A stretch of 8,333 nt of DNA from a virus (lineage: Duplodnaviria > Heunggongvirae > Uroviricota > Caudoviricetes), in IMG/VR virus record IMGVR_UViG_2698536369_000014; one strand, written 5' to 3'. Below are positions 86-8,333 of the stretch, piece by piece; the first letter of the stretch is position 1; each line of letters begins with the position of its first letter. Below the pieces are notes generated by a model that worked only from the letters and a program-made list of their open reading frames with translations, did not search any database and was not told the origin of the DNA. Made by a program: the position numbers and the translations under genes.

Positions 86-284
86 TATACGTTTTACCGA
101 GCATGATGTCTTTTCCTGTATGCCCGTGACATACAGTCCATACACCAACAATATCTTTGTATGGTATGTAGCTGACACCCTCCAGACCATCGTTACCACT
201 TGAGCCAGTGATTAACACTGATGCTATAGCAATTGCTCCGCCACCAATAGCAGCAGCAACGGCTTTTCGTAATGATGGAGGCAT
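86..284 (-). pseudogene. rrrD: SAR endolysin (phage 21 R-type lysozyme) 5' fragment, about 66 native codons then unrelated readthrough
   Basis: [27 protein letters not shown]...[33 protein letters not shown] matches the R21 N-terminus (SAR domain and E-D-T catalytic triad region). After GKTY the frame runs into out-of-frame Rz sequence and stops at 27. ATG at 282-284 overlaps the holin stop (TAATG). Confidence 0.75.
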
Positions 285-499
285 TATTCACCTCTCGCAG
301 CCTTGCGCTTATCTTCTTTAATCTTGAAATAAAGGTTTGTCAGGTACGTCAGCAGGCCAAATACCAAGCTACCCAGCACACCTATTGCTGCCCACTGTGA
401 GGGCGTGACTTTATCGAGCAGCTGTAAAAACCAGTAGCCAGCACTGCCTGCGGAGGTGCCGTAGGCAATGCCCGTTGTTAACTTATCCATGGATTTCAT
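284..499 (-). CDS. essD: Class II pinholin, S21/EssD-like, 71 aa, with dual-start motif (Met1, Met4)
   Basis: [26 protein letters not shown]...[13 protein letters not shown] is near-identical in pattern to the phage 21 S pinholin. GGAGGTGA ribosome-binding site lies upstream of the ATG at 497-499. Confidence 0.9.
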
Positions 500-593: not shown

Positions 594-626
594 CAAAAAG
601 AAAAACGCCAGCGATTATTCTGGCGT
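594..626 (-). terminator. Intrinsic terminator on the minus strand, between the AppY-like gene and the holin
   Basis: 7-bp GC-rich stem ACGCCAG (605-611) / CTGGCGT (620-626) with an 8-nt loop, followed on the minus strand by TTTTTCTTTTT (plus-strand A-run 595-604). Confidence 0.55.
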
Positions 627-687: not shown

Positions 688-1418
688 TTACATCATGTCT
701 TTTTCTAAAAAAAATCTTGATGAATATTGATGGGGAGGAACACCAAAATATCTTCTGAAAACACTTACAAAATATGACGTGTTTTCATAACCGCATATCT
801 CAGCAACTTTTCCAACAGAATATAAATTGTAGCTTAATAACCTTTCCGCCATCACCATTCGCTCTTCAAGAATTAACTTACTAAATGATAAGCCTTCGTG
901 CTTTAATTTTCTTTTTAACAGACTTTCACTCAGATACAGTCTTGAAGATATATCACAAAGTCTCCATGCTGCAGATATATCCGTGTGAATAATAGCCTTA
1001 ACTTTACTTCCTAAACTATTAAGACATCCAAATAAAAAACTTTGCACTATTTTCTCTGAAGATAAGATAGCAAGACATGCAAGTGATATTTGATTTCTAA
1101 CAAAATCCACAGTTCTGCCATCACAATTCAAGCATGCAATCAAGTTCTTTAACAATGAAAAATCTTCACATTCCACCATCAAGTATGCCGGATAAAACCT
1201 TCTTACAGAAAAAGATGAGAGTGTGTTGCTTTTAAAGAAATCATTAACTGTTTTCTCTTCAACATCTACGATCATTACATGATCTATATTTGATGAAAAA
1301 AATCTTTTAAATTGTAATCAATGAGAACAGCACTTCCTTTTTTAAACAAAGTATCTTCTTTACCAATTCGGACATCAAACGAGTTCAACACCAAAATGAT
1401 AGAACATATGTATGGCAT
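688..1418 (-). pseudogene. AraC/XylS-family regulator of the AppY/YdeO/GadX type, split by a frameshift: N-terminal 43-codon ORF (1287-1418) and C-terminal 195-codon ORF (688-1275)
   Basis: C-terminal ORF carries an AraC-type HTH. Upstream ORF MPYICSIILVLNSFDVRIGKEDTLFKKGSAVLIDYNLKDFFHQI* has AGGTGG ribosome-binding site and resembles the AppY N-terminus (MDYVCS..SFD....FKK). The two frames are joined by adding one base at the A7 run 1296-1302, giving ...KDFFSSNIDHVMIVDVEEK... Confidence 0.6.
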
Positions 1419-1769: not shown

Positions 1770-2729
1770 TTAATTTACCATCAGTCTTAGAGCCAGTTCG
1801 TCCGGATAGGGATCGAAGTAATTCTGTGTAAGCAAGTAATCATTAGGATACTCACCCAGATAATGCTTCAGCAGAGTCAACGGCGCAAGAAGAGGTAATG
1901 TGCCAGAACGATAGTTAAGTATAACCTCGCTCAACTCTTTACGCTGGCGTGTACTTAAGTAGTTACTAAAATACCCCTGTATATGCATCAGCACATTCGT
2001 GTGATTTTTACGTGACGCAGGTTTTCTGAGAATCGCCATCAGCTTATCACGATACACCTCAAAGTATGATTCAAGGTCCGCCCACTCGTGTATTGCAGCC
2101 ACAAATGGTCCCATATCTTTATAGCCTGCCTGACTATGCGCCAACAACTGAAGCTTATAACGACTATGAAAAGCTAATAACTCTCTTCTTGATAATTTCT
2201 CCTTGTAAAGGTGATTGAGCTCATGCAAAGCAAAAACTCTTTCAACAAAATTCTCACGAAGCACTGGATCATGTAATCGCCCATCCTCTTCAACCGGTAG
2301 CCAGGAAAACTTTTCCATCAAAGTGCTCGTAAATAGTCCCACTCCATCTTTACGACCTCGATTACCATTTTCATCATAGACACGCACGCGCTCCATGCCA
2401 CAGCTGGGAGATTTAGCACAAACCACAAACCCCGATACATCCTTTAATTTGTCCATATAAGAACGACTAAACTCTGTCATTCTCTCTGTCACATCCTCAT
2501 TCTGGTCGTGGCTGAAACACATCCGTATATTTCCTTGCGTCGAGCGCACAAGACGTAGAGCAGGACGCGGAACTGGCAGCCCTATAGCCATTTCCGGACA
2601 TACTGGTCTGAATGTTACCCATTCCACTAATTTGTCCATTAAAAAGTCAGCTCTTTTGTGACCACCATCAAAACGAACAGCAGAACCGGCCAAACAACCG
2701 CTGATTCCAATCACAGTTTTTTTTATCAT
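1770..2729 (-). CDS. TudS(DUF523)-DUF1722 fusion protein, 319 aa; putative [4Fe-4S] desulfidase of the RudS/YbgA family
   Basis: N-terminal half has Cys12 (GISGC), Cys44 (RPVCPE) and Cys104 (VVCAKSPSCG), matching the three-Cys cluster ligands of TudS. C-terminal half has YbgA/DUF1722-like motifs (LLAPLTL, YFDPYP). Strong ribosome-binding site AAGGGGGAG before the ATG at 2727-2729. Gene is AT-rich. Confidence 0.8.
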   Translation of the reverse strand: MIKKTVIGISGCLAGSAVRFDGGHKRADFLMDKLVEWVTFRPVCPEMAIGLPVPRPALRLVRSTQGNIRMCFSHDQNEDVTERMTEFSRSYMDKLKDVSGFVVCAKSPSCGMERVRVYDENGNRGRKDGVGLFTSTLMEKFSWLPVEEDGRLHDPVLRENFVERVFALHELNHLYKEKLSRRELLAFHSRYKLQLLAHSQAGYKDMGPFVAAIHEWADLESYFEVYRDKLMAILRKPASRKNHTNVLMHIQGYFSNYLSTRQRKELSEVILNYRSGTLPLLAPLTLLKHYLGEYPNDYLLTQNYFDPYPDELALRLMVN

Positions 2730-2921: not shown

Positions 2922-3446
2922 ATGAAGTTATGGCCTGTGTTGACTGGCATTGCACTCTCTTTCACTCTTATAGCATGTAAGGCCCCGACACCACCTAAAG
3001 GTGTGCAGCCGATTACAAATTTTGACGCCAACCGCTACCTCGGAAAATGGTATGAAATAGCTCGCCTCGAGAACCGGTTCGAACGTGGTCTGGAACAGGT
3101 CAGCGCTACTTATGGAAAACGGAACGACGGAGGGATTCGTGTACTTAACCGTGGATACGATCCAACGAAAAATAAATGGAGCGAGAGCGAAGGTAAAGCA
3201 TACTTTACTGGAGATACTAAAACTGCAGCGTTGAAGGTTTCGTTTTTTGGCCCCTTCTATGGTGGCTATAATGTAATCAAACTGGATGATGAGTATAAGT
3301 ATGCTCTTGTCAGTGGTCCGAACAGAGAATACCTATGGATTCTGGCAAGGACCCCAACTATTCCAGATAAAGTAAAAGCAGACTATGTGCGAACCGCTCA
3401 AAAGTTGGGATTCAATGTCAATGAATTATTATGGGTTAAACAATAA
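2922..3446 (+). CDS. Outer-membrane lipocalin lipoprotein, Blc-like, 174 aa
   Basis: Signal peptide with lipobox LIAC (Cys19). Motifs NFDANRYLGKWYEIARLENRFERGLE and KVSFFGPFYGGYNVI...YLWILARTPT align with E. coli Blc at roughly 55-60% identity by eye, so this looks like a diverged paralog, not chromosomal blc. Confidence 0.85.
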   Translation: MKLWPVLTGIALSFTLIACKAPTPPKGVQPITNFDANRYLGKWYEIARLENRFERGLEQVSATYGKRNDGGIRVLNRGYDPTKNKWSESEGKAYFTGDTKTAALKVSFFGPFYGGYNVIKLDDEYKYALVSGPNREYLWILARTPTIPDKVKADYVRTAQKLGFNVNELLWVKQ

Positions 3447-3601: not shown

Positions 3602-3979
3602 TTATTTCGAACAATCAGCATCCATCTCCAATCGGAGATCCAACACCATCAGCATACCCTCCACTACGCCCTCAGCTTTCTGGAGCATCCTGCCAACCCA
3701 ACAATCAGATCGCCCATGCTTACGTGCAAGCGCCATAAAAGTCATGCCGCCGACATAATAGTCCACCAATAAATCATGCAAATCGCTGTTGTTCTTTTTC
3801 AGACGGGCCATGCACCCGCAAATGATCATCGCGTCATCGTCACAACATTGTGGGCGAGATTTTACTTTTGAAGGAATTAATCCCTTAAAACCGGCGGCAA
3901 TGGACGACCAGGTCACATCTTCATGATTATTAGCCGCCCACGCTCCCCAACGCTCAAGACCCATCTGAATATCACGCAT
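3602..3979 (-). CDS. quuD: Late-gene antitermination protein Q (phage 82 / DLP12 QuuD type)
   Basis: [62 protein letters not shown]... is near-identical to K-12 QuuD as recalled. Start taken as the ATG at 3977-3979 (GGAG ribosome-binding site upstream), not the TTG-extended ORF ending at 3994. Confidence 0.9.
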
Positions 3980-5683: not shown

Positions 5684-6481
5684 TTACTCTCTGGAAGCTT
5701 TTCTTATCTCTCTTGGTGTTATATTAAAACGATTATGAAATCTTTCAGTAAAACGAGAAGGACACTTATAACCATTTTCTCTGGCAATCTCGCTTATAGG
5801 TTTTACCGTCGTTTGTATAGCAGACAACGCATTATTTAACCTCACATCGTCCAGTATACTTTGGAAACTTACCCCCTCGCTTGCTAGACGGCGATGTAAT
5901 GTAGAAACAGAAATGTAGAGATATCGAGCAACCTTGTTTGCTGTCCATTTTGTGCCGGGTTCGGATAGCAGCAGGTTATAACAACGACTTATCAATGATT
6001 GTTTACTATATGATAAAAGTAAATGATTAACATGATTCACTCCTAACGAAAGTAGAACGCCCATTGCTAAGTGCTCCTGAATTTTAGTTGAGAAGCCTCG
6101 GGAAACAGATGTTTTTAGTTGCTCCCAACAATATATTAACTCAGGATTCTGAGGTAAAAAGAAACTTGTTTTGTTACGTATTTGATCAGTTACCGTATAA
6201 AGTTTTTGGAAACTCTCAATTAAATCAATGGGTAAGTAAAGCATTTCTGCAAGATAAAGCCCTGCTTCAGGATAATTCTCAATATAAAATTCATAACCAC
6301 AAGGAAATAATATTATTTGATTATTATCAACAGTTAAAGTATGCGTCTCCCAATTGATAACTTTCTTTCCCTGACGGATACGACACAAAGCTGGCATAAG
6401 AGGCTTAACCCTATGAATCTCATGATGTTTATGCATCCGTATTTCTTCGATCTTTAAGTTAGTCTTACCTCTTGCCAGCAT
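5684..6481 (-). CDS. ybcM: AraC-family transcriptional regulator YbcM, 265 aa
   Basis: C-terminal AraC HTH ([38 protein letters not shown]...) and synteny ybcL-ybcM-ylcH as in K-12 DLP12. ATG at 6479-6481 lies 9 nt after the ybcL stop, suggesting an operon. Confidence 0.8.
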
Positions 6482-7506: not shown

Positions 7507-8229
7507 TTAGAAATAAATCTCACCATCAACCATATATTTGAGAGCACTTATCGCCTGCTGGGCGGATATTACTTTCATTAAAAGATAGTGTTTAAAAACA
7601 ATGCCATTCATAAAATAGATGTCACAGGTTTTATTATCCGTATTAATTATGATTTTTTCGAATGTTTTATAGGCAAGTGTACGGCATAACTCTCGTCCAT
7701 TTTTACTGGTTAAGTCAATAGCATAAAAATCACTGAATGAATTTACACCTTTACTCTTCAAAGTTTTCAATGATACCGAAGCCCTTCGTAATTCCTTATC
7801 TAATAGTCTTATTTTCTCTGCTATAGCGGTAACTTCAGGCGCGACAGACAATGCAACGATTAAATTATTAATTTTCATCTGAAGCTCAATAATTTTTAAC
7901 TCTAAAGTTTCATTAGCATCTTTCTTGTTTTCAACTGGTTGAATTTTGCTACAATTAAAAAGCAATTCATTAATGATATTATAATCAACCAAATCTCTTT
8001 TTATTGATGGCCTGTCACATCGATGTAATCTTCTCATCGGACAAACATAATAGCCATGCAAACTTCCAGATACCGCATGAACAATCATGGTATTACCACA
8101 AGCCTCACACTTCATAACTGTTCGAAGTAGATTTATTAGCATAGGATTCTTGCTACTATTGCTAATACCAAAAGGTGCCAACCGAATTTCCTGTACAGCG
8201 TAAAACAAATCATCTGATATGACTCTGGG
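7507..8229 (-). pseudogene. ybcK: Large serine recombinase (YbcK-like) 3' portion, 5'-truncated by the IS2-like insertion
   Basis: About 240 aa with a zinc-ribbon-like motif (CEACGNTM...YYVCPMRRLHRCD) and a coiled-coil segment, typical of the C-terminal half of large serine recombinases. No catalytic N-terminal domain. The track ORF start (GTG at 8254-8256) and first 9 codons lie inside the IS terminal repeat, with TGA and TAA immediately upstream in frame. Confidence 0.7.
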
Positions 8230-8333
8230 TGGATTTGCCCCTATATTTCCAGACACCTGTTATCACTTAACCCATTACTGGCTTGCTGCCGTAGATATTC
8301 CCGTGGCGAGCGATAACCCAGTGCACTATGCGG
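8230..8333 (-). mobile_element. Right end of an IS2-like (IS3-family) insertion sequence, continuing beyond the window
   Basis: TGGATTTGCCCCTATATTTCCAGACA... matches the IS2 terminal inverted repeat as recalled; about 92% identity to canonical IS2 over the 104 visible bases. Confidence 0.75.
8241..8333 (-). CDS. InsD-like DDE transposase (IS2 orfB) C-terminal 30 codons, partial
   Basis: Minus-strand translation [30 protein letters not shown], with stop at 8241-8243. Canonical IS2 InsD ends ...[29 protein letters not shown] as recalled. Confidence 0.65.

Follow-up and report, generated by a model that had tools for sequence, protein, structure and literature searches.

An AraC-family regulator gene interrupted by a frameshift at a homopolymer in a DLP12-like prophage

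Are two adjacent open reading frames (ORFs) on the minus strand of a prophage contig two genes or the broken halves of one, and, if the latter, is the break a sequencing artefact, a reversible switch or a lasting lesion? These questions are raised by the window, by which we mean the whole 8,333-nt stretch of DNA analysed here. A preliminary description, made from its letters, had joined the two ORFs into a single AppY-like gene that one added base would repair, placed the site of the break in an A7 run, and left three alternatives for its nature: a pseudogene, a slipped-strand on/off switch or a homopolymer sequencing error. The first of these is borne out by stable inheritance, secondary lesions and the decay of the surrounding prophage: the A7 allele is very probably a heritable pseudogene, produced when a cargo gene of a decaying prophage lost one base through slippage at a mutational hotspot.

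One gene in two reading frames

The run lies exactly where it had been placed, at positions 1296-1302, as seven adenines on the plus strand in the context ...TTTGATG AAAAAAA TCTTTT..., which is T7 on the coding strand. The N-terminal ORF opens with an ATG at 1418-1416, reads MPYICS...NLKDFFHQI and closes with a TAG at 1286-1284; it has 44 codons instead of the 43 first counted, whereas the 195 codons given for the C-terminal ORF hold. The ATG of this second ORF (1275-1273) is found 8 nt 3' of that TAG. The 44-aa fragment is also called as a gene in independent contigs (L080-L082). All features are collected in Table 1.

When one T is added to the coding-strand run, the two ORFs fuse across LKDFFSSNIDHVMIVDVEEK. 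This junction, which the preliminary description had predicted, agrees letter for letter with the intact allele (732 nt, 243 aa; WP_001146308.1), and the repaired protein has 243 residues rather than the approximately 242 that had been estimated. The single-base repair is thus realized in nature, the intact 243-aa allele being present in at least 240 complete genomes. For example, strain TL012 (L002) has A8 at the site and a single 243-aa "helix-turn-helix domain-containing protein" under the same accession; the T8 run of the intact allele spans codons Phe40-Phe41-Ser42. Within the gene, the copy of strain ECCTRSRTH03 (L001) differs from that of TL012 solely in having A7 in place of A8, and PGAP labels it a "frameshifted" pseudogene, a label that is shared by five other A7 copies. 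Similarly, the copy of strain KKa019 (L003) has A7 and is annotated as "frameshifted", and it carries in addition a 1-nt deletion toward the 3' end.

The N-termini of AppY, YdeO and GadW align with the 44-aa piece (MPYICSIILVLNSFDV against MDYVCSVVFICQSFDL), and in the intact protein the alignment with these three N-termini covers residues 1-48. Because the short piece aligns in this way, and because intact one-ORF versions exist, the two ORFs belong together: a -1 frameshift at the homopolymer has divided a single AraC-family gene between them. Positions 688-1418 are accordingly best annotated as a single pseudogene and not as two genes. The frameshifted state is already known, as RefSeq marks copies in the identical state as "frameshifted", and the finding is real but ordinary.

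Table 1. Features of the interrupted gene and of the flanking cassette, in window positions
Feature	Position	Strand	Evidence or remark
Whole frameshifted AraC-family gene	688..1418	-	731 nt; aligns over its whole length with the intact alleles of L002, L009 and L010
A7 run, frameshift site	1296..1302	.	One base below the T8 of the intact allele
N-terminal fragment ORF	1284..1418	-	44 aa: 41 native residues, then HQI and stop
C-terminal ORF, 195 aa from internal Met49	688..1275	-	AraC-type double helix-turn-helix; starts MIVDVEEK
Second 8-base run	707..714	.	Coding-strand T8 over codons FFL, close to the 3' end of the AraC gene; unbroken in the window
Terminator-like GC hairpin and T-run	605..626	-	62 nt downstream of the AraC-gene stop codon; consensus match only
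YbgA-family protein (2-thiouracil desulfurase domain and DUF1722), intact	1770..2729	-	Pfam and RefSeq annotation of homologous loci
Blc-like lipocalin, intact	2922..3446	+	Pfam Lipocalin_2, 7e-44; annotation of homologous loci
Antiterminator Q, upstream boundary of the cassette	3602..3979	-	Annotation of homologous loci; Pfam Phage_antitermQ on L080
Holin essD, downstream boundary of the cassette	284..499	-	Annotation of homologous loci

The second 8-base run is itself variable among relatives: position 714 is polymorphic (A/G) in 10 of 59, which interrupts the run, and the deletion in KKa019 removes one base from a 5-base run (700-704) beside it. The terminator scan returned one candidate, compared with 0.4 expected in shuffled sequences. 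Promoter matches between 480 and 1800 were no commoner than in shuffled sequences, so we claim no promoter, and an Rfam scan of the whole window found no RNA family.

Frequency and inheritance of the run states

A break at a homopolymer in a short draft contig of 8,333 nt invites the suspicion of an error, as such runs are error-prone and the true state could have been A8. We therefore looked up the exact 195-aa product, which occurs in 46 indexed blocks, and retrieved nine loci, all of them identical to the window at 900 of 900 positions over 601-1500. The window (CYBM01000060.1, GCA_001284545.1) is itself among the nine. The eight others are independent assemblies or samples, from NCBI, ENA and Logan and from different sequencing runs, and they share both the A7 and the private SNPs of the window. 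The 232 complete genomes with A7 described below also count against this explanation. A sequencing or assembly error, one of the alternatives raised in the preliminary description, is thus very unlikely, to the point of being negligible.

To place the two states in a wider sample, we used positions 640-1500 as a megablast query on a set of 5,426 complete E. coli genomes. The locus was present in 1,034 of the 5,426, and in 561 of these at an identity of at least 99%. The run state was then read in the complete genomes with probes of 86-89 nt that differ in run length alone, counting only perfect flanks. Among 583 carriers, 240 had A8, 232 had A7 and 13 had A6, while the remaining 98 had SNPs in the flanks; some of the A6 and A7 calls come from long-read-only assemblies and could be homopolymer errors, and the A7 count is inflated by ST410, a single heavily sequenced clone. 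This comparison of A7 and A8 in related strains, which had been proposed at the outset, therefore finds both states in large numbers. The genomes with A7 include YD786, AMA1167 and KBN10P04869, which are reference strains for ST410, a high-risk clone (PMC6052333, PMC10472685). In the less clone-biased sample of IMG/VR prophage contigs (n = 57), A8 was found in 50, A7 in five and A6 in two. The A9 probe had no exact match among the complete E. coli genomes. The sole record that spans all 89 nt of this probe, in NCTC11023 (NZ_LS483297.1, 3644249-3644337), has one mismatch, and it may represent a 9-position tract with a substitution.

The inheritance of the run was examined in an alignment of 59 copies restricted to the gene region (980 gap-free columns, with the run masked), since a haplotype table built with wide flanks (445 variable columns) was swamped by non-homologous sequence. 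None of the 11 multi-member haplotype groups mixed run states. On a neighbour-joining tree, Fitch parsimony placed A8 at the root and required eight changes at the run, all of them contractions, a count that is approximate because the prophage recombines and offers few SNPs. The 980 other columns together required 84 steps (0.086 per site), with at most two in any column, so that the run changes approximately 90 times faster than the average site. At least three haplotype backgrounds include both A7 and A8: A7 in the window and L003 but A8 in L022; A7 in L014 but A8 in L002, L017 and L019; and A7 in L020 but A8 in L016 and L018. Inside the ST410-like A7 clade (L012, L015, L029, L047, L043 and L044), there is no A8 member and no reversion was found. 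Overall, the intact state is ancestral, and the lesion is recurrent, yet stably inherited once acquired.

Could the run instead be a phase-variable tract, in which slipped-strand changes between T7 and T8 turn the regulator ON and OFF among subpopulations? Such a reading would be consistent with the position of the tract early in the coding region, with the abundance of both states in complete genomes (232 with A7 and 240 with A8) and with the return of the change on several haplotype backgrounds, in at least eight events. Recurrence at one site would also be expected from a switch or from selection for loss. However, the changes run in one direction, from A8 to A7 to A6, with no A9, and neither mixing within identical haplotypes nor reversion in the A7 clade was seen. 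Second frameshifts build up on A7 copies, which a reversible switch would not tolerate. Moreover, the tract is not conserved, being interrupted in alleles that are 87% and 90% identical (TTTTCTTTT and TCTTTTTT, respectively), and A8 predominates in the IMG/VR sample, in 50 of 57. A rate of approximately 90 times the site average is that of an ordinary, unstable 8-nt homopolymer and lies orders of magnitude below that of a contingency locus. Of the properties by which contingency loci are recognized, a tract that sets the reading frame is found here; two-way switching among close relatives and retention of the tract in homologues are not. The switch that had been put forward as an alternative is thus highly improbable.

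We consider that the A7 allele, as a heritable pseudogene, arose as follows. Through replication slippage, the T8 coding run of a 243-aa AraC/XylS-family regulator lost one T, and translation of the resulting allele would now end after 44 residues. As the most mutable site of the gene, the T8 run has suffered the same -1 lesion several times independently, and the lesion has become fixed in whole lineages, the ST410 clone among them. In the lineage of the window, at least two other lesions accompany the frameshift in what is a decaying cryptic prophage. The gene is "moron" cargo of this DLP12-like prophage, carried together with the lipocalin and YbgA-family genes in the stretch from the Q antiterminator to the holin. 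The product of the A7 allele is presumably non-functional.

The intact protein and possible residual expression of the shortened allele

In the intact allele, residues 158-234 match Pfam HTH_18 (54.9 bits, cut-off 33.6) and HTH_AraC (44.1 bits, cut-off 26.6). This C-terminal double helix-turn-helix is the domain by which the AraC/XylS family is recognized, and it marks the intact protein as a member. The complete HTH_18 domain is retained within the 195-aa ORF of the window. Among solved structures, the matches were the DNA-binding domain of GadX (3mkl, 2.5e-20), Rns and ToxT.

The identity is 32% to K-12 AppY, 32% to YdeO, 33% to GadW and 26% to GadX. The label "AppY-like" from the preliminary description is therefore apt only in a loose sense: the 32% identity to AppY is matched by that to YdeO and GadW and exceeded by that to ECs_0287, a regulator of the Sakai prophage Sp1 (54% identity over 235 residues). 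Of the relatives compared here that may have been characterised, ECs_0287 is the closest. Likewise, the alignment of the repaired protein to AppY, YdeO and GadX, which had been suggested as a check, extends over the full length of AppY, at identities of just 32%, 32% and 26%, respectively. The top NCBIfam match was the YdeO model (NF007407), over the full length and with E=7e-37; its 127.3 bits fall below the cut-off of 348, and YdeO was rejected as an equivalog. GadX was rejected in the same way, with 85.5 bits for its model (NF007432) against a cut-off of 500. The acid-resistance regulators YdeO, GadW and GadX thus resemble the protein along the sequence but score far under the equivalog cut-offs. 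The names of the sequence clusters were generic only ("AraC family", "helix-turn-helix domain-containing").

AppY, from the DLP12 prophage of K-12, is an AraC-family activator of 249 aa that is encoded in the same kind of prophage and aligns over its full length, including the N-terminal MxY(I/V)CS(V/I). However, appY occupies the far right end of DLP12, beyond tfaX, whereas the gene studied here lies between Q and the holin; with this difference in position and an identity of 32%, the protein is not the AppY orthologue. By its similarity, the protein is best described as a member of the AppY/YdeO/GadW subgroup that is an orthologue of none of them.

A closer parallel comes from the O157:H7 proteins PatE, PsrA and PsrB, which are likewise small AraC/XylS proteins (approximately 245 aa) encoded as cargo of lambdoid prophages. 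PatE is Z0321 on OI-8 (PMC10877973), and ECs_0287, given its location in Sp1, is the probable PatE orthologue (Z0321, OI-8). Both PatE and PsrB are reported to be activators of gadE and hdeA that increase acid resistance (review PMC10877973; PMC10057817). The 54% identity, measured against ECs_0287 on the premise that it is equivalent to PatE, indicates a paralogue and not an orthologue. The two genes also differ in their position in the prophage, that of the window belonging, with the lipocalin and YbgA genes, to the cassette between Q and the holin, and the copy in the window is frameshifted. Between diverged intact alleles, dN/dS is 0.20-0.24, indicating purifying selection on the intact gene. 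Most likely, the intact protein is, like PatE, PsrA/B, AppY and YdeO, an activator wired into the acid-resistance and stress regulons of the host.

Given that the DNA-binding domain survives the frameshift, the A7 allele might still be partly expressed. Transcriptional slippage or +1 recoding at the U7 run could restore the frame, or reinitiation at Met49 could yield the 195-aa protein, possibly with altered or constitutive activity. The restart ATG lies just 8 nt past the TAG, the 195-aa ORF has the whole HTH_18 domain, and there is a precedent in an AraC-family regulator of Shigella, MxiE, which is reportedly made by transcriptional slippage on a T9 run. In mxiE, the reading frame is likewise interrupted at a T run close to the 5' end; there, however, the split is the conserved, designed state, whereas here the unsplit T8 is ancestral and widely found and the run has only seven bases. 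Runs known for efficient slippage are longer than seven. No recoding is required by design, since the in-frame allele is ancestral and widespread. A programmed frameshift of the mxiE kind was rejected, as the in-frame A8 is ancestral, accounts for 50 of the 57 IMG/VR contigs and is present in isolated phages.

For reinitiation, the sequence before Met49 (ATAGATCATGTAATG) contains no purine-rich ribosome-binding site. Residues 1-48, which a restart would omit, are part of a conserved N-terminal domain common to AppY, YdeO and GadW, and secondary frameshifts accumulate downstream in A7 copies. Low-level reinitiation could yield an N-terminally truncated protein. However, the missing ribosome-binding site, the loss of the conserved N-terminal domain and the accumulation of downstream frameshifts make both reinitiation and rare slippage unlikely, and residual expression of the A7 allele is improbable.

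We also considered that the T8 run acts as an evolutionary "fuse", meaning that loss of a PatE-like acid-resistance/virulence regulator was repeatedly selected in some lineages, for example during the emergence of ST410. If this were true, the recurrent A8-to-A7 events would be adaptive parallel knock-outs and not neutral decay. In a weaker version, the A7 allele would keep a low level of activity by slippage or reinitiation. To this reading we give a small chance, and we favour the heritable pseudogene in a decaying prophage, to whose setting we now turn.

A cargo gene in a decaying prophage

The window is a DLP12-like lambdoid prophage with the gene order ybcK, ybcL, ybcM, ybcN, ninE, ybcO, rusA, ylcG, Q, the three-gene cassette, the holin gene essD and the lysozyme gene rrrD. 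The cassette consists of the lipocalin gene, the YbgA-family gene, whose product is also described as DUF523+DUF1722, and the AraC-family gene. The same cassette is found between Q and the holin in Qin-like prophages (L010). The AraC protein is also encoded by isolated temperate phages, in intact copies, with an identity of 99.2% in IdasGreatGrand and 82.7% in the Lambda_ev series. Its occurrence in DLP12-like prophages, Qin-like prophages and isolated lambdoid phages marks the cassette as a mobile "moron" cassette. To our knowledge, none of its lipocalin, YbgA-family and AraC genes has a known phage role.

Further damage to the gene was found on A7 copies. L003 has a second -1 frameshift at a run near 700, and L014 and L058 have one at the run at 1338. 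The lineage of the window has two private changes in the AraC gene, both nonsynonymous: I23T (position 1351) and P69S (position 1215). In strain 20A24 (L021:1495-3562), the A8 run is intact but an IS3-family insertion splits the gene, which has been knocked out there independently and in a different way.

Similarly, the prophage around the gene is eroding. Compared with L022, a 305-bp deletion at window position 87/88 (587|893 in L022) has taken away the 3' portion of rrrD together with the beginning of rzpD. The minus-strand ORF at 27-284 is the 85-aa lysozyme stub left by this deletion, and the same stub is called in L080-L082; with rrrD and rzpD truncated in this way, the prophage cannot lyse its host. 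At the other end, the last 104 nt (8230-8333) correspond not to ybcK but to the terminus of an IS3-family element (L021:1745-1848). This element cuts the ybcK recombinase gene at 8229/8230 and is probably the reason that the draft contig ends there. As anticipated for a pseudogene, the locus is disrupted where its intact homologues are constrained, and both the disrupted lineages and the prophage around the gene have gathered further lesions.

In all of this, the locus resembles other homopolymer frameshift pseudogenes of cryptic prophages, which likewise combine a -1 contraction of an A/T run, a PGAP "frameshifted" label and damaged neighbour genes. Nothing substantive sets it apart from these; only its high allele frequency, to which ST410 contributes, is notable. 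The A7 allele is nevertheless a common natural knock-out of an uncharacterised prophage regulator of the PatE/AppY type, present in approximately half of the carriers among complete E. coli assemblies, including ST410. Strains carrying A7 and A8 thus offer a ready natural comparison for prophage control of acid resistance, and the locus provides a clean example of an 8-base homopolymer dominating the decay of an AT-rich cargo gene. The stakes are modest, and no new question is opened.

Two observations concern neighbouring genes. The same prophage encodes a second, unrelated AraC-family regulator, ybcM (5684-6481, minus strand), which is intact and whose N-terminal domain gives a weak, sub-threshold match of the ExsA_N type; its regulon was noted as uncharacterised in a 2023 paper (PMC10057817). 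Finally, position 2717 carries a private G-to-T change in the lineage of the window, which extends a T7 run to T8 within the first codons of the YbgA-family gene and, from the reading frame, alters its codon 5.
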